A DNA stretch of 64,000 nucleotides, from positions 1 through 64,000 of IMG/VR virus record IMGVR_UViG_3300018080_008188; one strand, written 5' to 3'. The DNA comes from a virus. The notes under the pieces were generated by a model that saw only the letters and a list, made by a program, of their open reading frames with translations, was not told the origin of the DNA and did no database searches. The position numbers and the translations under genes are program-made. Shown piece by piece: positions 36,037-63,138 of this stretch (position 1 is its first letter; each line of letters begins with the position of its first letter).

Positions 36037-36711
36037 ATGGCACTCAAACTTCTTCAGCCCGGCGGACCGCCCCTCGGACAGTTCGACATGCTCGACACCG
36101 ACACGGCGATTCTCGGAGGCGAAATCGGAACCCTTTCATCCGCGGCGCGCGCCAACTCGACGACCGAGAAGGCGGCCGCAGACGTTCTCGACGGATATGT
36201 CAACGACGCAGGAACCCTCAAAAGGGCCGTCGTCACCCGCACGCTCGCGAACGACAATGTTCGCCCGCTGTGGCTGCTCGACGAGGGAACCAAGAACTAC
36301 GGAACCCTCTTCGGCGTGACCATCGGCGTTCCCGCCGGTCTTGGCACGGGTTTCGCCAGCGGAGTCTATTCTGGCACCCCGCTCGGTCCCCATACCGGAG
36401 CCGCAAGCGGCAAGGTTACTTGCTGGGACAAGCCCGGCGTGTATGGCGTCACTCTGGATGCGGCCGACACTGCTGCAGCCAACGGCCTGACCCCGACCAA
36501 CACGACCCTAACTCCGGGATCTGCGCTGTACGCAACAGCCACCGGTCTTCTGACCCCGACGGTTGCCAAAACCCCAGGCGGAGCCGGTCCTGTCGTAGCT
36601 CGCTTTGTTGAGTTCGAGACGACCGAAGTGTCCTTGGTCCGCACGCCACCGTCACTTGTCGGCGCGAGCGAGCAGATTGAGCATGCGGTCATCAGCTACT
36701 TCCTCGAGTAG
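36037..36711 (+). CDS. head decoration/cement protein
   Basis: Gly/Thr/Ala-rich beta protein immediately before the MCP; GGAGGA RBS. Confidence 0.7.
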   Translation: MALKLLQPGGPPLGQFDMLDTDTAILGGEIGTLSSAARANSTTEKAAADVLDGYVNDAGTLKRAVVTRTLANDNVRPLWLLDEGTKNYGTLFGVTIGVPAGLGTGFASGVYSGTPLGPHTGAASGKVTCWDKPGVYGVTLDAADTAAANGLTPTNTTLTPGSALYATATGLLTPTVAKTPGGAGPVVARFVEFETTEVSLVRTPPSLVGASEQIEHAVISYFLE

Positions 36712-36733
36712 GCAAAATAGCATAACTTAACTT

Positions 36734-36754
36734 GGGGCCGCCATTGGCGGCCCC
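36734..36754 (+). other. GC hairpin between the decoration and MCP genes
   Basis: ggggccgcc-att-ggcggcccc. Confidence 0.65.
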
Positions 36755-36802
36755 CAGGTTTCAACCTTTCAGAACAAAGAGAACCCCAGGAGGTCAAAGA
36801 AA

Positions 36803-37828
36803 ATGTCTACCAAGCTATTCAGTACGCATGGTGAGCTCAACGCAACCGGCGTGAAGGATGCCTTGGCCAACATAGTGAAGTACGCCAGCATTCTTGAGGA
36901 GATGCAGCCTGCCAACAGCGGCATGGCGCAGCAGCCCTCTTTCACCGACCAGCAGCGCGACGAGCTGATCAAGCGCGCCCTTCTTACCCAGGAGGGCAAA
37001 ATCGCTCTAGGCCAGGCAATGGCCAATCCGATTCGTAGGAACCTCGATTACCAGGGCGTGGGTCGCCGCGTGCTGGTCGTGGATCCGCTTCCCCAGGGCG
37101 CCCTTCCCGTGTACGACCGAGACATCGATGTCGCGGCCGTCGTGGTGTCCTCGAACGGCTCGGCTCCCGAAAGCCGCGTCTTCGGCGACAGGGTGACCGT
37201 GCCCGAGTTCGAGGTCATTTCGAACCCAACCGTCAGGATCGCTGAGGTCCGCCGGCGCCGGTTCAATGTGATTGACAGGGCGCAGCAGAAGGCCCGCCAG
37301 GAGATCCAGGCCCAAGAGGATGCCAACATCTTCGCAGCTCTGGACTTCGCAGGCGATGTTTCCCTCGGCGGCGAGAACACCGCCACGGACGTTGCGGACG
37401 CCGGTCTTCTGAAGCGCGACCTTTCGGAGATCAAGGTCTCCGTCGACCGCTGGGACCTCGTCACTTCAAAGTTCCTCATGAATATCATTGAGTTTAATGA
37501 TATCCTGAACTGGGCTTCCGGCGGTGGTACCGTTGGAGTCGGCGAGATCGACCCCGTGACGCAGCGTGAGATCCTTCAGACTGGTCTTTACGCGCAGATC
37601 TGGGGCTCCGACATCATCGTCAGCAAGATCGTTCCTCCGGGAACTGTCTTCGGCGTGGCCGATCCGGAGTTCGTGGGTGTTCTTCCGATACGGCAGGACA
37701 TCGAAGTTCTTCCGGCTGATGAACCTAAACAGCTAAAGCTTGGCTGGGTTGTGAACGAAATCATAGGGATAGGCATCGTCAACCCGCGCGGCGTGGCTGT
37801 TGGTCGCAAGAACGTGGCTGTCGGCTAA
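36803..37828 (+). CDS. major capsid protein (HK97 fold)
   Basis: LGQAMANPIRRNLDYQGVGRRVLVVDPLPQGALPVYDRD...QAQED..IF...GWVVNEIIGIGIVNPRGV; AGGAGG RBS; biased codon use; followed by a terminator. Confidence 0.88.
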   Translation: MSTKLFSTHGELNATGVKDALANIVKYASILEEMQPANSGMAQQPSFTDQQRDELIKRALLTQEGKIALGQAMANPIRRNLDYQGVGRRVLVVDPLPQGALPVYDRDIDVAAVVVSSNGSAPESRVFGDRVTVPEFEVISNPTVRIAEVRRRRFNVIDRAQQKARQEIQAQEDANIFAALDFAGDVSLGGENTATDVADAGLLKRDLSEIKVSVDRWDLVTSKFLMNIIEFNDILNWASGGGTVGVGEIDPVTQREILQTGLYAQIWGSDIIVSKIVPPGTVFGVADPEFVGVLPIRQDIEVLPADEPKQLKLGWVVNEIIGIGIVNPRGVAVGRKNVAVG

Positions 37829-37856
37829 CCACCGGTCCAAAAACTTAATAACCTAG

Positions 37857-37891: not shown

Positions 37892-37923
37892 ATGTTGACT
37901 GTGTCGTTTGGCTCCCATATTTT

Positions 37924-39528
37924 ATGGGTAAGATATTTTCATCATCAGCAGATAAAAATGGTAAAAAAAAGATGGTCAGAAAAAGACAGAAAACAAGCAA
38001 TGAAAATCTCATAAAAGACATAAAGTCGGTTTCAAAAAAGATTGGGCGAATCCCGCGCCAAAAGGATTACAAAGAGCATGGTTCATTTGCGCTGAATACA
38101 TTGCTAAACCGGAAACCTTGGAATTTGTGGCTTACAGAAATATTTGGAACAACAAACAAAAGAAAAGAAAAACAAGGAAATCCTGTTACTGATTTGGAAT
38201 TTCTTTCAGACATCAAAAAAGTATACGATATGCTGGGGAAAATTCCTACACAGAGGGATTACAGCAGACATGGATCATATGCTCTTACATCTTTGCTGCG
38301 GCGAAAAAGATGGAACCAATGGCTTGAGGCGTCTCTTGGAAAAGGCATGGTCAACTACAATCGGTCTTCATTGGCACAAGGAAAACGAATTCCAGATCAT
38401 AAACTGATGAACGATGTTAGGGCAATTACAAAAAAACTTGGGCATCCTCCGTCAAGAGGTGAATACAAACATTCTGGCATATATTCTTCAGATACAATTG
38501 TTTCCAGAATGCCATGGGATGATTTTGTGTTTAAAGCTGTTGGAAAACGACCATCTCCTGTTATGACCTCCAGAGCAAAAGTCAGTGAAGAAGACTTGCT
38601 GGACAATCTGTCTGACATTTACAGAAAACTTGGTAGAACACCTGTGCGTGACGATTGTGACAAGGGCAAATATAGCTATGTAGTATATCGGCGATGTTTT
38701 GGAACTTTCGGAAACGCCCTTGTGGCCGCTGGTATGATAAATCCACTCAACAGATACTGTATACCGAGGAACGAATTGATTGGCGAAATACAGCGCGTTT
38801 ATGGTATTTTGAAGCATACGCCGTCAATAGAAGAGTTTTTAGACCACAGTCCAATAATGAGCATAGGTCCGATATATTTCGAATTTGGGTCTTGGACAAG
38901 AGCGCTTCTTGCATCTTCCATTCCTGTCGAAAAGGCAAGAAATGTTACAAAAAAACATGTTTCGGAGGCGCTTGATGAATGGTTTGAACAGAACAACCGC
39001 GATATCTCCTGTATGGAATACTGGCAAATCCGCAAGGCAAGGGCACGACGTGAATTTCCATATTCTCCTTCAACAGTTAAGGAAAAATTGGGCAAAAAAA
39101 CTTGGGCCGAATGTATACGCTCGTGCGGTTTCGATTATGAATCCAGGGATATATTTCAATTTCGCCAATCAGTTATTGGAAAAGATGGAAGAAAATACAA
39201 GTCCAGAATTGAAGCTGATGTGGCATATGAACTTTTATCACTATGGCGCAAAAACCAAATAGTTTCATATGAATATGAAGCACGAGTGCTTCCGGAAAGA
39301 CAGTGGACATGTGATTTCCTGATCAAGACAAACAATGGGAACATATGGTTGGAAGTGGATGGCTTGCGTTGTAATAGAAAACATCCGTATGACTCCGGCA
39401 ACAACGAAAAAATAGAATATTACAAAAAAAGCGGAAAACAATGGGGAGTCATATCATACGATTCTAAGGACATTGCGTTTGCAACAAGAAAAATCGTGCT
39501 AGGAACAGCGGACCGTGAAACGCATTGA
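37924..39528 (+). CDS. homing-endonuclease-associated repeat protein with a C-terminal PD-(D/E)xK nuclease (AT-rich copy)
   Basis: About 5 repeats of L..DI..V...LG..P....Y..HG.Y......FG.W; C-terminal WTCDFLI...WLEVDG. Confidence 0.78.
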   Translation: MGKIFSSSADKNGKKKMVRKRQKTSNENLIKDIKSVSKKIGRIPRQKDYKEHGSFALNTLLNRKPWNLWLTEIFGTTNKRKEKQGNPVTDLEFLSDIKKVYDMLGKIPTQRDYSRHGSYALTSLLRRKRWNQWLEASLGKGMVNYNRSSLAQGKRIPDHKLMNDVRAITKKLGHPPSRGEYKHSGIYSSDTIVSRMPWDDFVFKAVGKRPSPVMTSRAKVSEEDLLDNLSDIYRKLGRTPVRDDCDKGKYSYVVYRRCFGTFGNALVAAGMINPLNRYCIPRNELIGEIQRVYGILKHTPSIEEFLDHSPIMSIGPIYFEFGSWTRALLASSIPVEKARNVTKKHVSEALDEWFEQNNRDISCMEYWQIRKARARREFPYSPSTVKEKLGKKTWAECIRSCGFDYESRDIFQFRQSVIGKDGRKYKSRIEADVAYELLSLWRKNQIVSYEYEARVLPERQWTCDFLIKTNNGNIWLEVDGLRCNRKHPYDSGNNEKIEYYKKSGKQWGVISYDSKDIAFATRKIVLGTADRETH

Positions 39529-40750
39529 TGATATGGAAATTATATCGGATATATTGCGTGTATCTGAAATCATGAACCGAGTTCCGTCGGCATCGGAATA
39601 CCGCCGGTTGGGGAAGTTCTCCATTCCCTCCCTGTACTCCCGCAAGCCTTGGGGCGCATGGCTGACCGACATTTTTCCGGACCATGAGCCAAGAAGGTTT
39701 CCGGGGCAGGAATGCCGCTCCGCATCCAAGGAAGAACTCCTTTCCGAGCTTTCCCGCATAGCCGCAAAGCTGGGCAAGCCGCCGTCTACAGCCGAGGTCG
39801 AGCGCGAGTCTTCCATTCCCGCATGCCGCTACACGCAGGAGTTTGGAACTTTGGAAAGCGCCCTGCGGCGGCTTGGCATGTCGCGCAGCCTGCTTTCCAA
39901 AGAAGACATAGTGAGCAGCATAAAAGGCGTCGCCTCGGATATCGGGCGCGTTCCCATGCAGGCCGAATTCCTTTCAAGGAGCAGATCCGTAGGTTCTTCG
40001 GCGTCCATATCCAGGCTTTTCGGCTCGTGGAACAGCGCCCTTGCGGAAGCTGACCTTGAACCCATCAAGTTTCGCAAAGCAGACCCTTCGGATGTTGCTA
40101 GGTCCGTAAGGGCGTGGCTTGAGGACAATGGAGGGGACACGGCATGCCTGAGATATTGGTCCATAGTGAAGGCGCGCAAGCGGGGAAAATTCAGATACGC
40201 CGCCAACACGATAAAGTCGTGTTTTCCCGGAAAATCGTGGGAAGAGGCTATTTCAGCGTGCGGCGTCGAATACAAGACGCAGAACCAGTTCTTCTGCCGC
40301 GGCAGCTTTCGCGGAGCCGATGGCGCCGCATACCTTTCATCCATGGAAAAGGACGCCGCAGACGAACTGCTTGCAATGCGCGAGCTTGGCGAGATAGATT
40401 CGTACGAGTACGAGGTGCGCGTGTGCGACGACAGAAAGTGGACATGCGACTTTGTTGTGCGAAGGGGAGGCGGCGAACTGTGGATGGAAGTTGACGGCAT
40501 GGGAAAGTCAAGATATGTTCCGTACGACATGGGCAACGAAAAGATAGGGCATTATGAAAAATCCGGCATGAACTACGCTGTCGTGTCCGGACCCGACATG
40601 TCGCGCGCCGTCCGGCGCGCCGTTGGAGAGCTTCTTTTGAAAGGCGGAAAGCATGGCAAGAAAAATGATCGACCGAAAATCAGCGCTTGCGTCTCTTGTG
40701 GACCTGTCGGACAGGCTGGGGAGAAGCAGCATCGGGAAAAGGGACGCTGA
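39515..40750 (+). CDS. paralog of the preceding repeat-nuclease (GC-adapted copy)
   Basis: Same repeats; YEYEVRVCDDRKWTCDFVV...WMEVDG; GTG start. Confidence 0.78.
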   Translation: MKRIDDMEIISDILRVSEIMNRVPSASEYRRLGKFSIPSLYSRKPWGAWLTDIFPDHEPRRFPGQECRSASKEELLSELSRIAAKLGKPPSTAEVERESSIPACRYTQEFGTLESALRRLGMSRSLLSKEDIVSSIKGVASDIGRVPMQAEFLSRSRSVGSSASISRLFGSWNSALAEADLEPIKFRKADPSDVARSVRAWLEDNGGDTACLRYWSIVKARKRGKFRYAANTIKSCFPGKSWEEAISACGVEYKTQNQFFCRGSFRGADGAAYLSSMEKDAADELLAMRELGEIDSYEYEVRVCDDRKWTCDFVVRRGGGELWMEVDGMGKSRYVPYDMGNEKIGHYEKSGMNYAVVSGPDMSRAVRRAVGELLLKGGKHGKKNDRPKISACVSCGPVGQAGEKQHREKGR

Positions 40751-42737
40751 CGCTGATGAAGCGTGCCCCAGCTCCATGACTTTCATAAGGATGTTCGGAT
40801 CTTGGAAAGAAGCCCTGAAGGCTGCAGGTCTTGAGGAAGGCAAAAAGACCGGACGGCCGCCGCGCGAAAAGCCGAACCTTATGCCGAGGAAAAAGCCGTG
40901 GCCGGACGACGATCCGCTCAGGTTTCCTGAAACGGACGCGATTTCGAACGATCCGAAGTCCATAATGATAGACGAGCACCTGGTGTGGAAAGGCAACAGG
41001 CTGGATCCCGCATTCCTGCGGTCCGTGAACGAGGATGCCAGGGACGAGATTGCCAAAGACGTGTTCAACTTCGTTCTGAAGTGCGACATTATGTCGTGCG
41101 GATACGACGAGGGCAAAGTGCGGCGCGACTTTGAGAATCTCAAAAACTCGCGCAAGGCGATTTTGGAATCCGGCGGAACCCTTTCCGTTTCGAGCGCCGG
41201 AGCTTCCGGTCACAGGGTGTACAGGCATTTTTTTCCAAACATACTGAAGATCAGCAGCGGAAGCAGGCCTTCGGTGTTCGAAGTCCTGTCCGACAGGAAG
41301 AAATTGTGGTCGGTGATCAGGAACAGGATCGGCAACACTTTGCTGTATTCCGACAGCGGCGGTCCTCCCCTGCAGTACCCCATGCCGATCACGATGTCCC
41401 AGCTTGCCATAGGTGCCAAGAATTCTGGTTTAGCTTCCATGGGCAGCATATTCAAGCCGGATGTTGCCAGGGCGGTTTACAGGCGGTGGGTGAAGGATGG
41501 AGACAGGGTTCTTGACTATTCGTGCGGATTCGGCACAAGGCTTCTCGGGCTGATGGCCAGCGGCGTCAGGGCGTCCTATCTCGGATACGAGCCCAACACC
41601 GAAACGCACGCCGGAATCGTCCGCATGGCGTCTTTCTTTGGATTCGGCGACCTGGACGTCAGGTGTAGCGGGTCTGAGGACGGCGAGGAGTTCTCCGACG
41701 TGTCGTTCGCATTCTCCAGCCCCCCGTACTTTTCGCACGAGAGATATTGCGACGAACCGACCCAGTGCTACATACGCTATCCAGAATATGCGGAATGGCT
41801 TGAAATGTACTGGAGGCGGACTGTGTCAAGGGTGCGCAGAATGCTGTCCCCGGACGGCGTTTTTGGAGTGAACATCGGGAACAAAGCCAATGCGGCGATG
41901 CGTTCCATGGAAGAGGACGTCAGGCGCGTGGTGGAAAGCGAAGGTTTCGAGCCCGTCGAAACGGTGTGGATGTCGACTTCCAGGTCGCATTTGACGGGAA
42001 AAAAGGGCACCGGCAGGAACACCAAGGCCGAAGGCATGTTTTTCTACCGCAAGGCGCCAATGGTGCGCAAAACAGTCGGAAGCTCCGAAAAGAAACCGTC
42101 AGGAGCCAAAATCGTATGCGGCGACATGACAAAAGAGGTCCCTAAGCTCGAGAGTCCGTCCGACCTGGCCATAATGAGCCCCCCGGATGTTTCCGAAATG
42201 GGGGACGATTTCGGCGAATATGAAAGGTTCCTGACCAAAGCGTACGCCGCCGCGGCGGACAATGTCCGCCCGGGCGGCGTGGTTGCTTCGTCGACGACGG
42301 ACCGAAGGTCGTCGGGCAGGGTGTATCCGAAGCATTCAAGGATAGCGGATATCATGTTTTCCTTGGGTTTTGTGCTGGAGGACCACAAGATATGGGCGAA
42401 AACCCTGAAAGCCAATCTTTACATACCCACCTTCGCGCATGTCATGGTGTTCAGGAAGCCTGGCACACCGCGCGTGAAGAACAAGGTGTCCGAATTTCTT
42501 CCGGACGTATGGCACATTCCTGTCGACAAGGCGCCGGGAAGCCCAAAGCACGATTCCTTTCCGACCGAGCTTGTCAGAAGGCTGGTGGACAGGTATTCCA
42601 ACCCGGGCGACATGGTTCTTGATCCGTTCTCCGGGTCGGGAAAAACCGCCTCCGTATGTATGGGCTTGGGAAGAAAATGCATCTGCATTGACATCAGCCC
42701 CTCTTCTGTATCCGCTTCCAAATCCCTCATTCCGTAG
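40653..42737 (+). CDS. DNA methyltransferase with two MTase domains and an N-terminal endonuclease-associated repeat
   Basis: Domain 1: LDYSCGFGTR then FSSPPYF. Domain 2 (beta order): MSPPDV...FPTELV...VLDPFSGSGKT. Confidence 0.85.
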   Translation: MARKMIDRKSALASLVDLSDRLGRSSIGKRDADADEACPSSMTFIRMFGSWKEALKAAGLEEGKKTGRPPREKPNLMPRKKPWPDDDPLRFPETDAISNDPKSIMIDEHLVWKGNRLDPAFLRSVNEDARDEIAKDVFNFVLKCDIMSCGYDEGKVRRDFENLKNSRKAILESGGTLSVSSAGASGHRVYRHFFPNILKISSGSRPSVFEVLSDRKKLWSVIRNRIGNTLLYSDSGGPPLQYPMPITMSQLAIGAKNSGLASMGSIFKPDVARAVYRRWVKDGDRVLDYSCGFGTRLLGLMASGVRASYLGYEPNTETHAGIVRMASFFGFGDLDVRCSGSEDGEEFSDVSFAFSSPPYFSHERYCDEPTQCYIRYPEYAEWLEMYWRRTVSRVRRMLSPDGVFGVNIGNKANAAMRSMEEDVRRVVESEGFEPVETVWMSTSRSHLTGKKGTGRNTKAEGMFFYRKAPMVRKTVGSSEKKPSGAKIVCGDMTKEVPKLESPSDLAIMSPPDVSEMGDDFGEYERFLTKAYAAAADNVRPGGVVASSTTDRRSSGRVYPKHSRIADIMFSLGFVLEDHKIWAKTLKANLYIPTFAHVMVFRKPGTPRVKNKVSEFLPDVWHIPVDKAPGSPKHDSFPTELVRRLVDRYSNPGDMVLDPFSGSGKTASVCMGLGRKCICIDISPSSVSASKSLIP

Positions 42738-42844: not shown

Positions 42845-43147
42845 ATGAGCAGATTCAACTATTTTGAAAACATCAGCGTTGACGGGTACTCGTTTCCGAC
42901 TGTGCCGCAAGCCCAGTTCAACTTCATCGCGCAGGGAATATCTTTCCTGAACCGCGGTTCGAAAATCCTCCAGTATTCGTTCGACGGCACAAATGTCCAT
43001 GGCGACCTGGACCCGTCGGATGCCTCTGCTGGCCTCACATTCGACAGCCGGAACGAGCACCGGGTGTGGTTCAAGGGGGACGACGGGTACGGCACTGTGC
43101 GTGTTGAGGCATGGGGCGGCTGGGGCAAGAAGCTGACCAACCGATGA
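42845..43147 (+). CDS. small beta-rich putative virion protein
   Basis: GAGGTG RBS; two DGY motifs. Confidence 0.7.
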   Translation: MSRFNYFENISVDGYSFPTVPQAQFNFIAQGISFLNRGSKILQYSFDGTNVHGDLDPSDASAGLTFDSRNEHRVWFKGDDGYGTVRVEAWGGWGKKLTNR

Positions 43148-45515: not shown

Positions 45516-45842
45516 GTGCCACTCAGACCGAAAAAATCGTGCGAGGTTTGCGGGCTGAAAAAGCGAAGCATTCTGCACAGGCACCACATTATACCGCGGT
45601 GCGACCCGCGATGTACCAACTCCAACGGAAACATTGCCGTTTTGTGCCCCAACTGCCACGGGCTGGTTCATGCCGGGGAGATTGTAATCGTAGGCGTATA
45701 CACGTCCACCGCCGGAATCGTTCCCGTATGGTTCAGAAGCGGCGAAGAGCCGCCGTTTCCGAAAGAACTCTGGATAGTGAAGGACAATCCTCTGGTCAGG
45801 ACGATCGGCGGGGAAGAAGACGATCTGCCTGAAGAGGAATGA
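45516..45842 (+). CDS. small HNH endonuclease
   Basis: CEVC...HRHHIIPR...NIAVLCPNCHGLVH. Confidence 0.85.
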   Translation: MPLRPKKSCEVCGLKKRSILHRHHIIPRCDPRCTNSNGNIAVLCPNCHGLVHAGEIVIVGVYTSTAGIVPVWFRSGEEPPFPKELWIVKDNPLVRTIGGEEDDLPEEE

Positions 45843-45846
45843 CGCC

Positions 45847-46377
45847 ATGGTTTTCCGCACGCCGGACGAGTTTCCGGGACCGTCTATAGATTCCGAATAC
45901 CGCATTACGGGACCGGACTATGACATCGACGAAGACGATTACGGCGTCCTAACTTTCGGCGCCGACGGCTATTTTGTTCTGGAAGACCTTTTTGGTCCGT
46001 TCAATCCAAGGTCGGGCGAGAGCGTCGACTATGTAACTGAAGAAGAACACAGGACGCTCAGGCAGCTGATCCATTTCATCGAAACCAACAGCCCCGGTCC
46101 CGGGTTTGGAGATGGCCCGTACGCATCTGAGGTCCTGCCTGCTGCTGACCCGTTTCCCACCAGCGAAACCTGGTTTAAAACAGCTGGAGACAGAACGGCT
46201 GGAACGGGCAAAATTTGCCGATGGGAAGCCACCTACAATGCGAACAAGACTTTTGCCACTGAGAAATGGATAGTATATAAGGCTGATGGTCTTAACCCTG
46301 CTGCTGATGCAACGGACACCATCAGCTATTCGGGAACCTTCGAAACCGGACGCAGCAGGGCATACACGGTGTACTGA
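45847..46377 (+). CDS. putative virion protein
   Basis: Acidic, contains DGY, coupled to the next gene (TGATG). Confidence 0.65.
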   Translation: MVFRTPDEFPGPSIDSEYRITGPDYDIDEDDYGVLTFGADGYFVLEDLFGPFNPRSGESVDYVTEEEHRTLRQLIHFIETNSPGPGFGDGPYASEVLPAADPFPTSETWFKTAGDRTAGTGKICRWEATYNANKTFATEKWIVYKADGLNPAADATDTISYSGTFETGRSRAYTVY

Positions 46378-48355: not shown

Positions 48356-48541
48356 ATGGGAGCTGAAACGGCAACGCTCATAGATCAGCTGGCGGAGATT
48401 TTTCAACTCACATCTGTTAAATGTAACACTTGTGGTTTCGAATTCTACGGACCAGCAAAATGGGACGATAAGAATAAGACAACTGTACATTTGGGCAAAT
48501 GCCCAAAATGTGGTTCGAAAGACATTTCAATCAAGGAGTGA
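48356..48541 (+). CDS. small Zn-ribbon protein
   Basis: CNTCG...CPKCGS. Confidence 0.65.
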   Translation: MGAETATLIDQLAEIFQLTSVKCNTCGFEFYGPAKWDDKNKTTVHLGKCPKCGSKDISIKE

Positions 48542-48546
48542 AAAAA

Positions 48547-53304: not shown

Positions 53305-53598
53305 TTGGTTACGATCAATCTCAGGACCGGAGGAGGCGCTCTCGAGCACATACATGAGAACGAAGACCTCAGTTCCCAGATCGACGGATACAACTCAGTG
53401 TTCACAACCAGTTTCGAGTACAAACCTGGTTCGCTCATTGTCCGCGTCGACGGACTTACCTTTAGAAGCGGCGAAGACGACGATTTTACGGAAACTGGGG
53501 CAAAGGAGTTCACATGGAACGACAGCCCTGTTCCTGGAGAGGGTCCTGGAGACTGCGAGGCGACCATGTTCGTATCATACCTGAGAAAGGTTCCATGA
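53305..53598 (+). CDS. small virion protein
   Basis: EDLSSQIDGYNSVFTT..YKPGSLIVRVDG module; TTG start after GGAGGG. Confidence 0.65.
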   Translation: MVTINLRTGGGALEHIHENEDLSSQIDGYNSVFTTSFEYKPGSLIVRVDGLTFRSGEDDDFTETGAKEFTWNDSPVPGEGPGDCEATMFVSYLRKVP

Positions 53599-53931: not shown

Positions 53932-54819
53932 ATGACAACCAGCCGCAAGGTGATAGTCGGACAGACCATCAACCTGGACATCAAGGTGTACAACGCCCTG
54001 AATCAGCTGGTTGACTCAGACAGCACGCCGTATGTTGAGGTCAAGGATGCCAGCGCGAATGTGTACCGCGCATCGTCGCCTTCAGGCGTGGTAAGGCTTG
54101 ACACCGGAAGATACCGCATCGCCTTCACTGTTCCGGCTTCTGCGGAAAGCGGAATCTGGAGCGACACTTGGCGCACGATGGTTGACGGCAATCTCATTAC
54201 GGACACGTTCAACTTCATAGTCCTTACATCAAGCGCTTCCATGGATGTGGATGGCAGGCAGATAGGCGACGACCCTGAGGTTTCCTTTTCGCAGGATGAA
54301 ATCTACGGCATCAACATACTCATGGAGCAGCTGCGGTGCCGCCTCAAGGACCGCAAGAGCATCAAATCCGTTTCCAAGGACGGCTATGGAGCAAATGTGC
54401 TTGTCGAATGCCCCATTTTCTCGGACGAGGAGCTGCTCTGCTTCATCAAAGCCAGCCTTAGCGAATTCAACCAGGTTCCACATTTTACCAGCTTCACTTT
54501 TGCCGACCCGATGATTTACGAGAGATACGCGCATGTAATTACCGAAGGTGCTTTTATACTGGCGATGGCTGCGCAGATGCTTGTGGAAGCTGGCAGGGAA
54601 TATACGCTGTCGGACAACGGCATCAGCAACCAGCCGCCTCCGCTGTCCACGGCAATGAACAACAACCTGAGCGCTTTCTTGAGCAGGCATACGGACATGC
54701 TCAAGTTCATCAAGTGCAGCTTGAAGCCAGCGCCGATGGGAACTGGAACCTTCAGAGTACTGGCAGTCAGCCCCGCATTTCTGAGGCTTAGACACCTGAG
54801 ACAGCGGCAAATAATTTAA
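53932..54819 (+). CDS. putative head-tail adaptor/neck protein with an N-terminal Ig-like domain
   Basis: LRCRLKD...IFSDEELLCFI..SLSEFN..PHFT...EYTLSDNGIS, a gp6/gp15-like helical pattern. Confidence 0.65.
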   Translation: MTTSRKVIVGQTINLDIKVYNALNQLVDSDSTPYVEVKDASANVYRASSPSGVVRLDTGRYRIAFTVPASAESGIWSDTWRTMVDGNLITDTFNFIVLTSSASMDVDGRQIGDDPEVSFSQDEIYGINILMEQLRCRLKDRKSIKSVSKDGYGANVLVECPIFSDEELLCFIKASLSEFNQVPHFTSFTFADPMIYERYAHVITEGAFILAMAAQMLVEAGREYTLSDNGISNQPPPLSTAMNNNLSAFLSRHTDMLKFIKCSLKPAPMGTGTFRVLAVSPAFLRLRHLRQRQII

Positions 54820-54824: not shown

Positions 54825-55970
54825 ATGAAATGTCCGGTCTGCGGCAAATCGTGCCATGGAAAAGTCGGTATCAGCAGCCATGTCTTCAAGACGAAAGATG
54901 AAGCGCATTTGGAATTTGTGCGCAGGCAGAATGTGCTGGTTGACGGGGCTTTCTTCAGAAACATCTCTTGCGGAGATTTGGCGGGCAGCAGGGAATGCCA
55001 TGTGTCTGTGGCATACATATGCGAAAGATGGCAAAAAATTCCCGGATACAAGGAAAGAAAATCGCGCATGAACTCAAGCCGCATGCTTGGCGAGTGGAAA
55101 AAAGGTCAAAGAAAGGTGCCGCCATCTTTCACAAACAAAGGCGCAGAATACGATCTGGGAAAGAAAACGACGATCTCGCAAAAGCAGCATGACAAAATCG
55201 TGTCGCTGTTTGAATCCGACAAAAGCATTGCCGGCATAGCCAAAGAGGTCTCATGCGACCGCAAAACAGTGAGAAGCGTTTTCCTGCGCGAATTCGGCAG
55301 CCAAAAAACCAAAAGCCGTGGAAAAAAAATGGCATCCGCCACATGTTTGCGCACTGTAGCCGGAAAAAACAAGGTGCCCGCCGATTCGGGTCTTGGAAAA
55401 GCGATAGTTGATTCTTTCTGCGGAAACGAGGGCATTAGGTCGGTGGCAAAGAGGCTGGGAACAGGAACGGGAGTGGTGGTTCGCATATGGAAGCATGCTT
55501 TTGGTGCGGACGGATATAAAAGACGCTGCGCAAGAATGCGCAAGATACAGCGCGAAAGGGCATCGAAGTCTCTCAGGGTTGCAAAATTTTTGGGCTCGAA
55601 AAACGAAAGGCTTTGTCATAGGGTATTGTCGGAAAAAATTCCAGGCACAAATGTAATACACCATGACTACAGCATAGTATGCGGTCTCGAAATAGACATT
55701 TCAATACCGGAGATGAAAGTGGCAATAAGCTGGGACGGTCCTGGGCACAGAAGACCTGTGTTTGGCCGCCGCGCATTCGGGCGGACTTTAAAGAATGACA
55801 GAAGGCGGGACCATGCTCTAAGGTCCATTGGATGGAGACATATTTCCATCATCGACGAGGGAAGACACAATCCGCCGTTTGTAAAGCATGCCGTTGACCT
55901 CATAATAGGCAAATTGGGCGGCAAATGGTCCGGAAAATGTGTGATAGACCCAAGGAAGGAAGAAGGATGA
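54825..55970 (+). CDS. Zn-finger/HTH protein with a C-terminal PD-(D/E)xK (Vsr/DUF559-like) endonuclease; putative homing endonuclease
   Basis: CPVC...H...H; two HTH-like segments; EIDISIPEMKVAISWDGPGH...NDRRRD; AT-richer than the flanks. Confidence 0.75.
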   Translation: MKCPVCGKSCHGKVGISSHVFKTKDEAHLEFVRRQNVLVDGAFFRNISCGDLAGSRECHVSVAYICERWQKIPGYKERKSRMNSSRMLGEWKKGQRKVPPSFTNKGAEYDLGKKTTISQKQHDKIVSLFESDKSIAGIAKEVSCDRKTVRSVFLREFGSQKTKSRGKKMASATCLRTVAGKNKVPADSGLGKAIVDSFCGNEGIRSVAKRLGTGTGVVVRIWKHAFGADGYKRRCARMRKIQRERASKSLRVAKFLGSKNERLCHRVLSEKIPGTNVIHHDYSIVCGLEIDISIPEMKVAISWDGPGHRRPVFGRRAFGRTLKNDRRRDHALRSIGWRHISIIDEGRHNPPFVKHAVDLIIGKLGGKWSGKCVIDPRKEEG

Positions 55971-56703: not shown

Positions 56704-58704
56704 ATGGCGCGATTCACAAAGTTTCTGCCGGAGCCGGGCAAGACGGGTGTCCAGAGGACAGCCGCAATCAGCTTCACGGTTCTTGACGATGCCTACGGAG
56801 CCCAGATTTCAACGCTGTCCGCATCCGTGGGTGGCGTCAGGGCGATCTCCGGCGGTTCGTTCGTCGGAGGGTTCTCTGGCCAGATAATAGCCGGGTCCGG
56901 CAAATGGGTGACCGCCATATATCCGCGGGCTCCTTCATTCCTGGCCAGGGCCTCGGAGATAGAGGTTGAAGCATCGGTCCGGAATTCGCTCGGCGAACTG
57001 GACTCGTACGGCTGGAGCTTTTTCACTGTCGGATATGTGGCTCCAGGCAGTCCGTCAGAAGATTCTCCCGCAGTTCCGCCAAACAGAGCGTGCCTGGTCG
57101 GCAAGCCGTTCTTTGTACACAACATGTCTGGTCTTGACGCCGCCCTAGATGCTGGCGTCGGAACAGAAGTGGACCTGCAGTGGCTACAGGCTTCGCCGTA
57201 TGACGAAAACAACGCGGTAGTATACAACATATACATGTCGACTTCGCTCGTAAGCGTGTTCGACAATCCTCCGCAGTTCATGTCAACGGCCCTGTCGGCC
57301 TCCATTGGAGGCCTCCATCCTGGAGACACGCACTTTTTTGCTGTGCGCGCTTCGGAGATGGATCCACAGGTTTCGAGCTTAAGGGGTCTGAAGCAGGCGG
57401 GGTCCAGCATGTTTCGCTATCCGTCCACCTTCCTGTCGTCTGCGGTGGGGGACGGATATCTGGAGATTCCCGTTGAATCTGTAGAGGGGTTCCCGGAGTT
57501 CGGAATAGCCGTTGTCGAGGACGAACTCATAAAATATTCGTCCCTGCGGCAGGTTCCTCCGGCCCTGATGCTCGCCGATGCCTACGGAAGAGGCTGCGCA
57601 GGGTCGCTGGCTGAAAGCCATTTGGCCGGGGTCGCAATCGGACTGTACTGGGGGAGGGAGGACGACAACACAGTCATATCCCAGGCGACTCCGACATTCC
57701 AGAAGCCAGAGGCGGCTCTGACATATGTGCTTCCAGATTGATACGGACAGGACGGATACAGGGACGGATACGACGGGTATTCCCCGCGCGACGGCTATGA
57801 CGGCTACCTGATGCATCGCCAGGTAAACCGTGACGACATAACGACGCCGGTGGAGAACAGCAACGACGGGTCTGGTAATTTCCCGTCTTTCGATCACTGC
57901 GGAAGCTACCGCCGGGAATCTCCGGCGGCTCTTTGGAAAGGACAGTGCGTGCCAAGCTATCTCGGAGGAATACAGTACAGAGACGGCGTGTTCGTGCGCG
58001 AGCAGAACATGCGGAGCCAAATGCTCCAGCGCGAAGAGCTGATGCTGGAGACGACTGGCGAGCCTTTCGTGCTGCTGCGAAGGAAATGGACCGGCATGCG
58101 CTGTCCATGCCATATGCAGAGAAGGGAGCACGCGGACAAGAGGTGCCCCAACTGCTATGGCACCGGATTTCAAAACGGATACGACCAGTTTGTAAATCCG
58201 CGGCGCCCGGACGGGCGCATATTGGCGCGGGTCAGTCCGGCGACGGAAGACCTCGTCATAGAGGACAAGGGCGGTCTTACGCCCCAGTACTCGCCGTCGG
58301 CATGGACGATGGCGTTCCCAGGCATAAAGGACCGGGATGCGCTTGTAAGGTTCAATGAGGACGGGACTGAAGAGTTCAGGTATATGATACTTAATGTTGA
58401 GCGCGTGAAGGAGTTTTTTGCGCAGTCGGGGGCGCAGAAGTTCAACATGCAGCGCTTCCACCGCACGGACATCATCTACCAGTATCCGGTACAGAGGGAC
58501 ATGTCGCCGTTCCCGTCGGCTGCCGAGACAGACCCGGCAAGCGCCCCGGGCATACCGAGCCATACGCATGTCCTGTACTTTCCGAACGGTATAGATGTCG
58601 GCAACCTGAACGGAGTGACTGCCGTCAACCACAATCACAGCCATGTGATAAGAAACGGCATGCTGCTTCCGGCTTTCGGGCATGTACACACTTTGACGAT
58701 TTAG
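56704..58704 (+). CDS. putative neck/head-closure protein with an Fn3-like domain; single frame interrupted by TGA at 57739-57741
   Basis: Track ORFs 56704-57741 and 57811-58704 are in frame and joined by LPD*YGQDGYRDGYDGYSPRDGYDGYLM. Fn3 pattern (LQW..YNIY..GLHPGDTHFFAVRA); CPC...CPNC; His-rich tail. Confidence 0.7.
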
Positions 58705-58717: not shown

Positions 58718-61700
58718 ATGACCTCAAGGTACCCAGCGGAAATAGACGGATATCAGCAAATAAGGGTGGCTCGCGACGGCGTCGACGAGATAGTCGCCAC
58801 AGATCACAATGCCCTTAGAAGTGCTGTCGTAAAGGTAGAGCAGACGCTCGGCATCAATCCGGCCGGATCTTTCGGAACGGTGGTTGCGCGCCTTGAGAGC
58901 GCTTCGGCTGACATCATGAGCCATGTCACCGGATCGCAGCCAAAACACCAGGACACTGTCATCGAAGGCGCGGCAAAGTCGTCTTCATATCTTGCGCTAG
59001 CGGCCGGGTCAACGGCTACCCAGCTGTCCGCCCTGGTACAGGCTCTTGGAGAATCGTCCGGAGCCCTTCGCGTAGGATATGCCGGCAGCGGAGCTGACAA
59101 GTTCGCGGACGGCAGCGCCGTCCCATCGGGCACGGTCAAAAGCGGACTGGGGTCGATCGCTTCGATGCTTGGCGGGTCTTCCGGGTCGGAAAGGATTGGG
59201 GCGTCCGGCTTCTCCACAGGCAAGTTTTCCGTTTCAGGGGCAGATATCGATGCACAGCTTAAAAGCCTTGGGGGAGTCGCCGACGAGTTGAGCGAAATTG
59301 CCGAAATGGCGTTTGCCGGTCTTGTAACAAGCGGCCTGGCAGTGACGCGCGCAAATGCCACCTCCGTGAATGTTTCGTCGGGGTTTTTGATGTCCGACGG
59401 TCTTCTTCGCAGATATGCGGGAGGAACCTTTGCGCATTCCGGTGCGGGCTTCCACCGCATATACGCGTATATCAACAGCTCCGGCAATATCGCCATCGGA
59501 GACGCCGCCAGCGACGCCGCGCTGATGGCCAATGTTCCTCTGGCGGTTTTTACCGAAACTGGAGCGGCGCATACCGGATTCGTCGGTCTTCGCAGGTTCG
59601 GTCTTCACATGAACCGCGAGCAGATAACGGTCGGGTCGGACGGGTACGGGGCGGATTTTACATCGTTCAAAAGCGCCATGGAATACATGAGCCGGGCGGT
59701 GTCGGCCGGAGCATTCACGCCGCGCAAGATTATGGTGGTAAGCGACATAACGGTTCCCTCAGCAGAGCTGCCGATAGAGCTTGAAAGCGACATGATGGTC
59801 GACGGCGGAAACCACACGCTGACATGGAGCGCAGACTCTGCGCTGTTCAAAATCGACAACAAGAACAGGGTGGTGGTCAAGAATGTGAGGGGGTACTACT
59901 CTCCGGCGGCTGTCGGCGTCAACGCTGCTTTCCTGGACATCGACGCGACAACCTCCGCAAGCGAAGTGGAAGTTTCTACATGCTTCACCAGAAGCGGCGG
60001 AGGCTTGGGATATTTCATCACATACGACACGAGCGGAGGAGGAAGCCTGGACACATTGGTTGTCGAAAGCTGCAATGCCAGATGCGAGCTGTCCGCTCTC
60101 AAGGGCGGAACGGCCGCTGCCGAAGCCGCACCGAAGCACAGCAGAATAGCTGGAAACTATTTCGGACAGAATTCGTTTGTAGCGCAGGCTGATCCGTGTA
60201 TGATGATTGGCGACTTTTCCATTGCGGACGGAAATGTGCTGCAGGGGGGCTACAATGTCGGAATCCGCTCGCACTATGCCGAGGGCGTGGTCGTTTCAGA
60301 CAACATAGTGAACGGCGGCACGGGAACCAGAACGGTCTCCGGCACGGCATACATGGCCAAAGGCATCGAGATGATGGTCAATGCTTCGCTGTGGCTGCAG
60401 CGTTCGATAATCAGCGGAAACTATGTCAAGGGCTGCACATCTGTCGGAGTAGACCTCAATCCTTCGGGCACTGGCGAAGCCACGAACTGTATGGTAAGCG
60501 GGAACATGGTAGACAATTCTCGCGATTTCGACGCGGCGTCGATAGGAGTCAGGGGCGACGACCAGAATTCCATGGTCGAAGGCAACTATATCATCCATCC
60601 GGGGACATACGCTGTTTACAAGTCGCCATATATCGTCGGAAACATGGTACACTGCAAGCAGGGCAACACCATGACTTCTGCAATCGACGTCTCCGGCACC
60701 GATCCAATGGTAGTTAGCGGAAACATGGTGTTCGATCTCAGCGGAGACGGCATAACGGGCAGCGGGGACGATTTCCAGCTAGTACATGGAAACTACATCT
60801 CGTTCGATTCCGGGGGGGCTCCGGGCGTGGGCGTTTCCGGCATGGGCGAAAACGCGGCAATTGCGTACAACTACATAGGCAGTCCGGGAACCTACGGGAT
60901 AAACCATGGAGGAGATTCCGGAACCGTGGCTGGGAATGTCATTGACAGCGCGACCGGAATAGGAATCAACATCAGCGGCCTCCTGGCTTCCGTGTACGGA
61001 AACGCAATTGTGGACTGCCAAGGGGCGTCATGCGTCGTCGTCAGCGGCAACAGGGCGTCTGTTGCTGACAACCTGCTTGTTTCCCCAACTGCCAAGGGCG
61101 TGGCATTGTCGTCTGCGCAGTATTGTATGGTTTCCGGCAACTATGTTAGCGGAGCCGGCGGAACGGCGATAGAGGCCGGATCCGGCTGCCACCACGCTTC
61201 GTTCGTTGGAAACTATGCCTACAGCGGATCCGGCATAGGAATTCTTGCCAGCGCCGAAAGGTGCCTGGCCTCGTCCAATTTCGCGTATGGCGGGACTGTG
61301 GGAATATCGTTCGATGCGTCTGCTGCGCGAGGCGCAATAGTGGCCAACCATGTGGTAGACAACACCGGCGCGGCAGCAATAGAGAACTACAGCGGCCTGT
61401 GCCTCATTTCCGGAAACTTCTCAAGAAACGCCGGCGGCGTCGGCATACGGCTGGACGGAAACGCCATCGATGTGATAGGAAATTTCGTAGACGAGCCTAC
61501 GAGCCATGCGTTCGAAGCTCCCGGCTCGCACGCCTGGTCGTCGGTCGTCGGAAACTATGTCAGGCTGTCCGGAGACCATGCAATAGAAATGGAAAGCAGC
61601 TACGAGGCGCTGATAATCGGAAACAACCTTAACGGGGTAACCGGAATAGGAATTTCGACAAACGGGGTCCTGTGCACGGTGGCAAGCAACAAAATACGAA

Positions 61701-62776
61701 GCGCATCCAGCCACGGAATAGACATAAACGACGGCGACAGCAACCTTGTAATTGGCAACCATCTGTACAGCATCGGAGAATATGGCATAAACGGAGATTC
61801 GTCGGACCTGGCGTCCATTATAGGAAATTTCATTTCGACCGTAACCAACGCCAACCAGAACGGAATAGGCATTGCCGGAGACCGGTGCTCGATAGTTGGA
61901 AACTTTATTCAGAATATCAGCAACATAGGAATAAACGCAACTGGCGACAACAACCTGGTGTCTTCAAATGTAATCGACACCGCCGATTTTTGTATTCGCA
62001 ACGGCGCCAATGCGCTCATAATCGGCAACAGGATGCGAAGCTGCGACTGGGGAGTGTATCCGTACGGGGCAAGCCACAACATGTCCGTTGTCGGCAACAT
62101 GGTTGATACGCATGCCGAAATAGCGTATGTGATAGACGGTCTTGAGGACTGCCTGGTAATAGGAAATACATCGGTCACTCCGGCCGATGCTGCCGCATAC
62201 GGAATATACGGACCGACTGCAAACAGTTCGATGGTTGTAGGAAACAGGTGCGAGGGAACAGGCGGAGGTGCCATATACTCTCTCGGAACCGGAGTCGTGG
62301 ATTCTTTCAACAAGGGGCAGTCATACGAAGTCACCCTTGGAGCAGCCAGTGCAGCAGTGGAAAGAACAGATGCCGGGGCGTCGACATGGGACAAGGTGAC
62401 CGCGGAGCTTTCTGCCACCAATGTCACTTTCGAGCCGTTTTACTACTCCGTGGTCTGGGAGTTCGGAAACGAGTCTGTTCCCATTGGGGCGACCATAGAT
62501 CAGATTGAAGTTGAATATTCCATTTCTGTAGGAGCGGTTAACGACCTCAACATGTCGTGGACCAGCGACAAGGGATTTGGGGCTGCCCCAGTAACTGTGA
62601 ATGCACAAGGCGCAGTAGCTGCCACTGGCCTGAACAAGACCGAAACCATGACTCCGGATGTTCCTCCGGCTATCATGGAAAGGGGGCAGTTTCATCAGGT
62701 TTTGTGCATAGCCATGAATGTTAGCGGTGCCTGGTCGATGAAAATACATGCGGTCAGGCTAACATACACACTTTAA
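58718..62776 (+). CDS. tailspike/receptor-binding protein with a long right-handed beta-helix
   Basis: Many I/VxGN repeats at ~22-aa spacing; N-terminal YPAEID virion-attachment-type segment. Confidence 0.82.
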   Translation: MTSRYPAEIDGYQQIRVARDGVDEIVATDHNALRSAVVKVEQTLGINPAGSFGTVVARLESASADIMSHVTGSQPKHQDTVIEGAAKSSSYLALAAGSTATQLSALVQALGESSGALRVGYAGSGADKFADGSAVPSGTVKSGLGSIASMLGGSSGSERIGASGFSTGKFSVSGADIDAQLKSLGGVADELSEIAEMAFAGLVTSGLAVTRANATSVNVSSGFLMSDGLLRRYAGGTFAHSGAGFHRIYAYINSSGNIAIGDAASDAALMANVPLAVFTETGAAHTGFVGLRRFGLHMNREQITVGSDGYGADFTSFKSAMEYMSRAVSAGAFTPRKIMVVSDITVPSAELPIELESDMMVDGGNHTLTWSADSALFKIDNKNRVVVKNVRGYYSPAAVGVNAAFLDIDATTSASEVEVSTCFTRSGGGLGYFITYDTSGGGSLDTLVVESCNARCELSALKGGTAAAEAAPKHSRIAGNYFGQNSFVAQADPCMMIGDFSIADGNVLQGGYNVGIRSHYAEGVVVSDNIVNGGTGTRTVSGTAYMAKGIEMMVNASLWLQRSIISGNYVKGCTSVGVDLNPSGTGEATNCMVSGNMVDNSRDFDAASIGVRGDDQNSMVEGNYIIHPGTYAVYKSPYIVGNMVHCKQGNTMTSAIDVSGTDPMVVSGNMVFDLSGDGITGSGDDFQLVHGNYISFDSGGAPGVGVSGMGENAAIAYNYIGSPGTYGINHGGDSGTVAGNVIDSATGIGINISGLLASVYGNAIVDCQGASCVVVSGNRASVADNLLVSPTAKGVALSSAQYCMVSGNYVSGAGGTAIEAGSGCHHASFVGNYAYSGSGIGILASAERCLASSNFAYGGTVGISFDASAARGAIVANHVVDNTGAAAIENYSGLCLISGNFSRNAGGVGIRLDGNAIDVIGNFVDEPTSHAFEAPGSHAWSSVVGNYVRLSGDHAIEMESSYEALIIGNNLNGVTGIGISTNGVLCTVASNKIRSASSHGIDINDGDSNLVIGNHLYSIGEYGINGDSSDLASIIGNFISTVTNANQNGIGIAGDRCSIVGNFIQNISNIGINATGDNNLVSSNVIDTADFCIRNGANALIIGNRMRSCDWGVYPYGASHNMSVVGNMVDTHAEIAYVIDGLEDCLVIGNTSVTPADAAAYGIYGPTANSSMVVGNRCEGTGGGAIYSLGTGVVDSFNKGQSYEVTLGAASAAVERTDAGASTWDKVTAELSATNVTFEPFYYSVVWEFGNESVPIGATIDQIEVEYSISVGAVNDLNMSWTSDKGFGAAPVTVNAQGAVAATGLNKTETMTPDVPPAIMERGQFHQVLCIAMNVSGAWSMKIHAVRLTYTL

Positions 62777-62790
62777 AAGCGGAGCCTTTC

Positions 62791-63138
62791 ATGCCAACCA
62801 AATTTGAGACGACAAGACTGTATGTCCAAGACGGATATGAAGAGGGCGGCGACGGCGCGCCCGTCATGGACGGATACGATGTGGTGGAAACGGCTGACGG
62901 CTATGATGTGTCGTGTTTTCATGTGCCATTGCACCATGCCAAGAATCTTCGCATGTTTCTGTACAGGGCGAACTTTTCCATATACATGGGGGAACAGGGG
63001 CTGTACAGCCATTCGGCCAGCCATCTTGCTTCTCTGATAGACAGCAGGGAGCGAATGAAGAGGCTTCTGCAGTCCATTGATGAATCGTCGGAAGACGAGC
63101 CGTACGACAAGATCATAGACAGGAATATTTTCAGATAG
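62791..63138 (+). CDS. hypothetical protein with three DGY motifs
   Basis: QDGYEE, MDGYDV, ADGYDV. Confidence 0.7.
   Translation: MPTKFETTRLYVQDGYEEGGDGAPVMDGYDVVETADGYDVSCFHVPLHHAKNLRMFLYRANFSIYMGEQGLYSHSASHLASLIDSRERMKRLLQSIDESSEDEPYDKIIDRNIFR

Follow-up and report, generated by a model that had tools for sequence, protein, structure and literature searches.

An Asp-Gly-Tyr motif enriched in peripheral virion proteins of a phage-G-like jumbo phage and its relatives

RESULTS

Asp-Gly-Tyr recurs in the structural genes of a virus contig

Analysis of the first 64 kb of a 134,081-nucleotide (nt) virus contig (IMG/VR record IMGVR_UViG_3300018080_008188, positions 1 to 64,000, hereafter the window) showed that the tripeptide Asp-Gly-Tyr (DGY) occurs about 10-fold more often in the peripheral virion proteins encoded there than amino acid composition predicts. 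All real genes of the contig lie on the + strand. Six-frame translation of the window gave 26 DGY on that strand (20, 4, and 2 by frame) compared to one on the − strand. All 26 copies are located at nt 36190-62896 and are read in frame within long open frames. A first-pass annotation of the same DNA had counted about 26 in-frame copies in about 11 proteins, and its tally agrees with ours gene by gene (1, 2, 1, 1, 7, 1, 1, 1, 6, 2, and 3). The genes concerned, with lengths in amino acids (aa), are listed below.

36031-36711, + strand: decoration-position protein, 226 aa, directly 5′ of the major capsid gene; DGY at nt 36190 (residue 54)
42845-43147, + strand: 100-aa protein of no known family; DGY at nt 42881 and 43082 (residues 13 and 80)
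45847-46377, + strand: 176-aa protein of no known family; DGY at nt 45964 (residue 40)
46377-47504, + strand: 375-aa protein of no known family; DGY at nt 46443 (residue 23)
51103-52812, + strand: fibre-like protein, 569 aa; DGY at nt 51178, 51532, 51562, 51874, 52063, 52255, and 52378 (residues 26, 144, 154, 258, 321, 385, and 426)
53305-53598, + strand: 97-aa protein, no family found; DGY at nt 53383 (residue 27)
53932-54819, + strand: 295-aa protein of no known family; DGY at nt 54379 (residue 150)
54825-55970, + strand: 381-aa protein with an HNH endonuclease region at residues 257-342 (PHROG 559, E = 3e-6); DGY at nt 55509 (residue 229)
56704-58704, + strand: 666-codon gene, present in the window as two open reading frames (ORFs), 56704-57741 and 57811-58704; DGY at nt 57451 and in an array at nt 57736-57807
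58718-62776, + strand: tailspike-like protein, 1352 aa, right-handed beta-helix; DGY at nt 58745 and 59639 (residues 10 and 308)
62791-63138, + strand: 115-aa protein, no family found; DGY at nt 62830, 62869, and 62896 (residues 14, 27, and 36)

As a composition control, residues were shuffled within each protein 2000 times, with ORFs called from the start codon. The ORFs at nt ≥36000 held 20 DGY compared to 1.93 expected (standard deviation 1.38, maximum 8), so the earlier estimate that composition would give one or two copies downstream was accurate and the enrichment survives the correction. DGY ranked first among all tripeptides of the window (z = 13.1), followed by KPW at 7.2. The corresponding DNA pattern, GACGGNTAY, was never found out of frame on the + strand in a six-frame count. 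Among related tripeptides in the window, DAY was mildly enriched (5 compared to 1.55 expected), whereas DSY, which had been named with DAY as a variant, stood at expectation (2 compared to 1.64); EGY, NGY, DGF, and DGW were likewise not raised.

The motif extends past the window into the rest of the contig. The whole + strand holds 47 GACGGNTAY and 3 GATGGNTAY sites, 50 out of 50 of them in frame, compared to two and one, respectively, on the − strand. The carriers downstream of the window are as follows.

contig 70933-71706, + strand: 257-aa protein, no family found; one DGY
downstream on the contig, + strand: 1797-aa protein; four DGY
downstream on the contig, + strand: sheath; two DGY, at residues 162 and 444, outside the conserved C-terminal region 652-854
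downstream on the contig, + strand: 711-aa protein; one DGY
downstream on the contig, + strand: Baseplate_J protein; three DGY
downstream on the contig, + strand: ConA-like protein, 2284 aa; five DGY
downstream on the contig, + strand: dockerin-bearing protein; five DGY

Most of the carriers drew no family from Pfam or PHROGs, and the DGY-bearing proteins are poor in Lys (3.2% compared to 7.0%). The tailspike-like protein matched Pfam NosD (2.9e-19) and Beta_helix (5.5e-19) and the PHROG tail spike family (2.6e-5). The fibre-like protein has 52 homologues at E ≤1e-5, three of them with a precomputed bactofilin domain (PF04519); a Foldseek search with its model returned nothing at E ≤0.001, the weak top rows being Mu tail fibre and T4 gp34. 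The product of 36031-36711 belongs to no Pfam or PHROG family and had no tblastn match in nt 1-50000 of phage G, so its "decoration" label comes from gene order alone (the position of phage G gp26). The labels "adaptor" and "neck," given in the first-pass annotation to 53932-54819 and 56704-58704, found no support from annotation tools. The HNH protein had also been counted among the tagged proteins, but its site is present in only one of five cluster members. Because the four orthologues lack DGY, this copy looks like chance and is probably a background occurrence. HNH endonuclease genes are dispersed in the structural module, at 45516-45842 and 54825-55970 in the window and at 69824-70933 on the contig.

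A tandem array spans an interrupted gene

Five proteins contain tandem arrays, for example DGY-R-DGY-DGY. The one at nt 57736-57807 reads D-(TGA)-Y, GQ, DGY, R, DGY, DGY, SPR, DGY, DGY. Five DGY are located between the TGA at 57739-57741 (stop context GAT-TGA-TAC) and the ATG at 57811, in frame with both flanking ORFs. In two related loci, L081:20080-22053 (658 aa) and G001:227274-229256 (661 aa), the orthologue is one uninterrupted ORF that includes this array; the spacing and an Arg of the array are kept in the three orthologues, and the TGA of the window aligns with the Gly of the first array DGY in the other two. A Logan contig of a sediment-metagenome run (X1) has G for T at 57739, giving GGA, as the sole difference in 1501 nt, although this run may be the source sample of the window and is then an independent assembly but not an independent sample. 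Since the other assembly has GGA and the two orthologues are uninterrupted, the TGA is probably a variant or assembly error and not a read-through site, and nt 56704-58704 are best taken as a single gene carrying seven DGY. Recoding of TGA (code 25) or programmed read-through at 57739 was considered and rejected, as TGA ends 24 of the 60 called genes. The six copies first counted here are correct in number, but five of them lie past the TGA and are coding only if it is not a stop, as the comparison indicates.

Core virion proteins and non-virion proteins lack the motif

The motif is confined to peripheral virion proteins; core and non-virion proteins show none or a background level. Two non-carriers serve as context.

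22733-26803, + strand: 1356-aa protein with a head-maturation-protease region (PHROG 18299, E = 4.7e-11); no DGY
36803-37828, + strand: major capsid protein; no DGY, and none in 17 of 17 cluster members

The ORFs at 22.7-35.9 kb, including the proteins encoded between the protease fusion and the capsid gene, have no DGY, and neither do two tube-like proteins, the tape measure, and a 1654-aa hub-like protein. At background level are the DNA ligase, topoisomerase IB, LigD-type proteins, and intein host of the first 22 kb (none) and the helicase, DnaB, and PrkA (one each). The assertion that DGY marks external virion proteins was broadly right, its carriers being fibre-like, spike, and baseplate proteins, the N-terminal part of the sheath, and the decoration-position protein. 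Inside the DGY-rich block, at 48499-50279, are a poly-gamma-glutamate-hydrolase-like protein and a metallophosphoesterase, both without DGY.

The + strand frames of nt 1-36189 contain no DGY, as had been reported for the ORFs of the first ~35 kb, where the only copy is on the − strand. In the shuffled control, the upstream ORFs had 0 DGY compared to 1.58 expected. This zero is not significant on its own, and the first 22 kb hold non-virion proteins.

This distribution bears on the idea that DGY is a processing site, where a protease of the phage would cleave off N-terminal propeptides or sever linkers during assembly. Several small proteins do have DGY within residues 10-40, some arrays lie between domains, and a head-maturation-protease domain is encoded at 22733-26803. 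However, the capsid protein and the proteins encoded from the protease to the capsid gene, where a prohead protease would be expected to act, lack the motif, most sites are in folded repeats or in tail proteins beyond the reach of such a protease, and the seven sites of the fibre-like protein are conserved across 43 homologues. A processing role is very improbable on these grounds.

The peptide and not the DNA is conserved among relatives

The major capsid protein (PHROG 2522, E = 2e-76) is 51.7% identical, over 84% of its length, to gp27 of Bacillus phage G, its closest isolate. In IMG/VR, 173 capsid-protein relatives were confirmed, on contigs of up to 441,904 nt. Based on the homology to gp27 and the very large size of the relatives' contigs, we assign the source, by sequence comparison, to a phage-G-like jumbo phage (genus Donellivirus and relatives), of which the contig is a fragment (completeness 25% by CheckV estimate). 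Relatives were found across many metagenomes, with GC contents from 25 to 56%, and the clade is environmentally widespread. A megablast search with nt 36000-60000 against the phage collection gave no match.

The excess of DGY is a property of this clade. Whole records of close relatives hold 50-165 coding-strand sites compared to 9-44 for a reversed control pattern, and those of more distant relatives (capsid protein 72-76% identical) hold 8-33. In a 340-kb relative with the same GC content as the contig (G001), the sites form three islands of 18, 62, and 20, with four or five sites in the remaining ~220 kb. Phage G has 52 DGY in its whole genome compared to 19 for the control, and its giant tail-region proteins gp420-gp428 have 13 compared to 1.9 expected. 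No excess was found in seven other phages: E3, Tunturi_5, Rctr197k, LR745208.1, T4, phiKZ, and an Erwinia jumbo phage.

The codons of the motif raise the question of whether GACGGNTAY is a DNA- or RNA-level signal of which the peptide is a by-product. In the window, Asp is GAC in 26 out of 26 DGY, as the first-pass annotation had seen for every copy it checked; it was also correct that the other codons vary, Gly being GGA (14), GGC (6), GGG (5), or GGT (1) and Tyr being mixed. Over the contig, GAC is used at 47 of the 50 sites and GGA is over-used for Gly (29 of 50). Within the DGY-bearing genes of the contig, the GAC:GAT ratio is 38:3 for the Asp of DGY compared to 591:353 for other Asp codons (P = 2e-5). 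This bias, the strong strand specificity, and a DNA methyltransferase encoded at 40653-42737 favor a nucleic acid signal. However, G001 writes the Asp of DGY with 66 GAC and 38 GAT compared to a background of 827:558 (P = 0.47). The GAC bias therefore belongs to this genome alone, being absent from an equally GC-rich relative, and is not part of the motif definition. Counts over 53 related loci, each at least 10 kb long, gave 87 sites in the GAC form and 201 in the GAT form on the coding strand, compared to 9 and 2 on the opposite strand; low-GC relatives mostly write DGY with GAT, and all four Gly codons are used. Strand bias follows from coding because all genes are on one strand, all 50 + strand sites are in frame, and no bases are conserved beyond the nine. 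A nucleic acid signal is largely refuted by these results and hardly credible. Since relatives keep DGY with other Asp codons, selection operates at the protein level, as had been proposed: the residues are selected and the DNA is not.

Specificity of the motif and its structural setting

Tripeptide counts among the 17 closest loci (348 ORFs, 103,380 residues; orthologous sites inflate the totals) define which residues are favored. DGY was found 192 times compared to 17.4 expected. DAY was raised 3-fold (46 compared to 15.5) and DGT 2-fold (79 compared to 40.6). The other close variants were near or below expectation: DGF (17 compared to 20.4), DGW (10 compared to 6.5), EGY (13 compared to 13.8), NGY (8 compared to 14.9), DGV (34 compared to 38.1), and DGI (40 compared to 35.3). 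These counts show selection to be highly specific: it favors the carboxylate of Asp, a small residue in the middle, and the hydroxyl of Tyr.

Two structural models place the motif. In a model of a Big_5-like repeat (predicted local distance difference test [pLDDT] score 96.4), D70-G71 forms the two-residue turn of a hairpin whose strands are 64-68 and 71-77, and a second DGY ends strand 89-98, ahead of a four-residue loop. The fold is immunoglobulin (Ig) like, and its best matches are the copper-binding proteins CopC and PcoC (E about 1e-4, template modeling score 0.54-0.71), a similarity at the fold level only. In the AlphaFold2 model of the fibre-like protein (mean pLDDT 70.6), the DGY at residues 144 and 154 are at turns of a beta meander, where local confidence is about 50. 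Compared to the composition of the same proteins, position −1 is enriched in hydrophobic residues (1.6-fold) and −3 in Asp/Glu (1.9-fold), whereas Lys/Arg at −2 (0.29-fold) and Pro at +1 (0.07-fold) are depleted. The predicted settings of DGY, from the models and the arrays, are beta-hairpin turns, strand ends, and tandem linker arrays. Strand order alone suggests that the four DGY positions of the Ig-like repeat may lie two at each end of the domain and not all at one tip.

One reading of this setting is that DGY is a purely structural staple: in the beta-rich fibre proteins of this lineage it would be a favored means of making a tight type I′ beta-hairpin, in which Asp-Gly forms the turn and the aromatic residue begins the next strand. 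It would have spread through module shuffling and through selection on folding or stability. The repeat model has the features of such a hairpin, Asp/Asn-Gly in the loop with strands on either side; both models put DGY at hairpin turns or strand ends; and the flanks are strand-like, with a hydrophobic residue at −1 and Pro excluded at +1. In addition, DGY often shares alignment columns with DGT, DGS, DGK, and DGA, consistent with pre-existing Asp-Gly turns, and DGT itself is raised. Several observations argue against this. First, the near-equivalents DGF, DGW, DGV, DGI, and NGY, which a type I′ turn should favor similarly, are not enriched in the 17 closest loci. Second, the same folds form without DGY in sister-lineage orthologues and sister repeats. 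Third, tandem DGYDGY arrays are not hairpins. Fourth, the seven other phages, T4 and phiKZ among them, show no excess. Finally, module shuffling cannot explain the spread because the flanks of the sites share no homology. We regard a purely structural role as unlikely.

DGY sites turn over among orthologues and repeats

Across 13 orthologue clusters, 62 distinct DGY columns were found, many of them in indels, and the number of copies varies among orthologues (1/6/3, 1/4/4, 8/4/6, and 7/4/0). DAY is the commonest replacement in DGY columns (16 cells), and in other columns DGY stands in for DGT, DGS, DGK, or DGA. In the decoration-position protein, all 19 cluster members have DGY in its column, as do all close-clade loci that aligned, whereas most far-clade loci have an unrelated loop there. 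An alignment of 43 sequences of the fibre-like protein shows DGY invariant at residues 144 and 154 and present in 42 of the 43 at residue 26; residue 258 is D/E-G-Y, residue 426 is D-G/A-Y, and the remaining positions are variable, with 4-8 DGY and 0-5 DAY per member. Both columns of the 100-aa protein (42845-43147) are DGY in 6 of 20 members and unrelated tripeptides in the rest. The column of 53932-54819 reads DGY, DAY, DGL, DGM, DGA, and DEN, one each, in its six-member cluster. Orthologues of 45847-46377 have six and three DGY at partly different positions, and those of 46377-47504 have four each, with the window site replaced by DAY in both.

In a relative, G008, a 3634-aa protein (L088:1490-12394, − strand) has 57 DGY and 7 DAY, including eight DGY in a run of 36 residues. 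This protein contains 19 Big_5-like Ig repeats (Pfam PF13205), in which DGY occupies up to four alternative positions, and some repeats have none at a given position. Because sister lineages and sister repeats of one protein lack DGY, the motif is dispensable for these folds, yet it has repeatedly been installed and retained.

Other features of the contig

Several features outside the DGY pattern are recorded here. Three intein-type insertions (Hint or intein-splicing domains with LAGLIDADG) occur: one at 1000-4152 in the window, in a 1050-aa protein, and two at 120027-122579 and 129505-132210 on the contig, in a helicase and a SpoVR-like protein. The latter belongs to a phage-encoded PrkA-DUF444-SpoVR gene trio at contig 126294-132210 (L087), the last gene of which carries the intein. 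Unusually large multi-domain DNA-repair proteins are encoded at 6178-15798 in the window, including a 1408-aa protein with ATP-dependent ligase, ASCH, and LigD primase-polymerase-like regions and a 998-aa protein with LigD phosphoesterase, ASCH, and a eukaryotic-type topoisomerase IB core. At 27295-29112, three consecutive ORFs in the same frame are split by TAG stops only (27985-27987 and 28378-28380); the third has a GTG start and no obvious ribosome-binding site, and read-through is possible. Immediately 3′ of the capsid gene is a low-GC island (37924-42737; GC content 0.44 compared to about 0.55) encoding three proteins with the common PHROG 22655, the third fused to a DNA methyltransferase domain. 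A phage-encoded tubulin/FtsZ-family protein is at contig 118326-119762.

DISCUSSION

A surface motif that may direct a tyrosine modification

Taken together, the data make it very probable that DGY is a genuine surface motif under selection at the protein level. Sequence comparison suggests that D-[G/A]-Y is a short linear motif installed repeatedly on the turns, strand ends, and linkers of outward-facing virion proteins. When a short linear motif marks a whole class of virion proteins, it is usually a sign that they undergo a common process, for example maturation by a protease or glycosylation. Because the demand for Asp, a small residue, and Tyr exceeds the needs of a hairpin and the motif is limited to one clade and to the virion surface, we infer that the Tyr hydroxyl takes part in an event in trans, for which the Asp-Gly turn would present an exposed Tyr. 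This Tyr may then undergo covalent modification, the first candidate being O-glycosylation by phage or host transferases, in which case DGY would be a sequon and the tandem (DGY)n arrays would be densely modified linkers. The first-pass annotation had offered a modification sequon or a docking/metal-binding turn. The enrichment of a modifiable short motif beyond composition in its substrate class fits a sequon, whereas the co-occurrence of a transferase did not hold up (see below), and several readings remain. A tyrosine-directed covalent modification sequon is for us the leading mechanism, and a tentative one. In broader terms, D-[G/A]-Y could be the recognition element of an undescribed tyrosine chemistry (covalent modification, or covalent or metal-mediated docking) coating the virions of these megaphages, a possibility that we entertain with reserve.

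Candidate enzymes are encoded on the contig. Two multi-domain glycosyltransferases lie directly 3′ of the tail genes, at contig 105129-107417 and 107424-111110 (L086, 105129-113207); their domains are GT4 and Glyco_trans_1_2 with GT2, and the two proteins have no detectable similarity to each other. A Sulfotransfer_3-domain ORF is located near them, at about 112.3-113.2 kb, with the domain at about 112.8-113.2 kb. Homologues of the second glycosyltransferase (1228 aa) were found in 7 of 20 records, all DGY-rich or intermediate.

A number of points weigh against a dedicated modification. First, the 7-of-20 pattern is confounded by phylogeny and by incomplete contigs. A search with the PF13524 domain family of the same enzyme removed the pattern, as this family also occurs in the DGY-poor G010, G015, and G017 and is absent from phage G. 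Among five DGY-rich genomes, Sulfotransfer_3 and Pkinase were each found in one and GT8 in none; tyrosinase was also found in none, an uninformative result since its control was silent too. The search for co-occurring transferase genes that had been suggested as a check thus gave no tested family conserved across the DGY-rich genomes, and no conserved modifying enzyme emerged among the few families tried, on contigs most of which are incomplete; a host enzyme may supply the activity. Second, for both glycosyltransferases the solved proteins that match best are generic transferases of sugars and lipids. Modification of DNA is another known activity of virus glycosyltransferases, and those of the contig may act on DNA instead. 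Third, several DGY occupy classic Asp-Gly turns of folded domains and are invariant there, an observation that also agrees with a structural role or with ligand binding. Finally, the terms "DGY," "tyrosine," and "post-translational" are absent from the main text of a 2025 phage G multi-omics paper.

Without an enzyme, DGY could be an intrinsic binding turn, a minimal weak site whose many copies, on fibres, Ig-like repeats, and decoration proteins, would add up. Candidates are the carboxylate and the phenol acting on a metal such as Fe(III) or Ca(II), or binding of glycan hydroxyls, in the service of adsorption to polymers of the cell surface or matrix, or of virion stability. That no conserved enzyme was found agrees with this, as do the location of DGY on turns and strand ends of Ig-like Big_5 repeats and the copper-binding proteins among the repeat's fold-level matches. 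The conserved spacing and Arg of the array in three orthologues suggest an ordered element over a floppy linker, and the carriers include lectin-like and dockerin-bearing tail proteins. On the other hand, there is no enrichment after Asp-Gly of Trp, in most cases the best residue for stacking on sugars (10 compared to 6.5 expected), and three residues are very few for specific binding. We consider such a binding turn almost as likely as a modification sequon, and equally tentative.

The consequences differ with the mechanism. If DGY is a tyrosine sequon, it would represent a new way of modifying the phage surface, with consequences for host recognition, for persistence in sediment and soil, and for surface engineering. 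An undescribed tyrosine chemistry would amount to a modifiable surface code of dozens to more than 150 sites per genome, and an intrinsic binding turn would be a minimal adhesion or metal-binding module. The motif is directly testable, since phage G is cultivable and has the same bias in its giant tail proteins. DGY is also a cheap sequence marker of peripheral virion proteins in a mostly unannotated clade.

Comparison with known systems

Full-text literature searches gave no description of a DGY or Asp-Gly-Tyr motif in phages among the papers listed, nor, by title or abstract, of tyrosine glycosylation of virion proteins, in agreement with the first-pass annotation, and the function of DGY is apparently undescribed. 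Several known systems share some of its features. Like type I′ hairpins, DGY occurs at Asp-Gly turns, in Big_5-like repeats and beta meanders, but its demand for Tyr and for Asp over Asn far exceeds what a turn needs. Prohead proteases recognize motifs such as L/I-x-E in T4 and S/A/G-x-E in phiKZ, which likewise comprise three residues, occur in many virion proteins of one lineage, and are sometimes near N termini. Those motifs mark head proteins including the capsid protein, whereas DGY is characteristic of tail and fibre proteins and is avoided in the capsid protein and the head-internal region. The tip of the T4 long tail fibre has repeated His-x-His metal-binding motifs, also a very short repeated fibre motif whose side chains do the work; they are confined to one fibre domain, whereas DGY is spread over at least 10 unrelated proteins of the window and metal binding by it is hypothetical. 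In isopeptide tags of the SpyTag/CnaB type (…VDAY…), a reactive Asp pairs with a Lys and a catalytic Glu of a CnaB-type partner domain. The possible likeness to the motif is only in the D-A-Y after hydrophobic residues; the DGY-bearing proteins are poor in Lys, and general Pfam scans of the contig proteins detected no CnaB domain.

Surface glycosylation sequons and the glycosylation of mycobacteriophage virions come closest to DGY. Glycosylation sequons include N-X-S/T and the bacterial PglB sequon D/E-X-N-X-S/T. Like the PglB type, DGY is a short motif with one acceptor and an acidic residue two positions before it, and like sequons in general it is over-represented on exposed surface proteins, where sites are gained and lost while their density is kept. 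The differences are that the acceptor would be Tyr and not Asn, that the transferase families tried showed no link to it, and that assembly would be cytoplasmic. In mycobacteriophages, according to the part of PMC12619734 that cites Freeman et al. 2023, virion glycans are found at the C termini of capsid and tail-tube subunits. As far as that account goes, the capsid and tube-like proteins here differ in having no DGY, and the likeness is one of gene order: phage glycosyltransferases adjoin the structural genes there, as the two glycosyltransferases 3′ of the tail genes do here.

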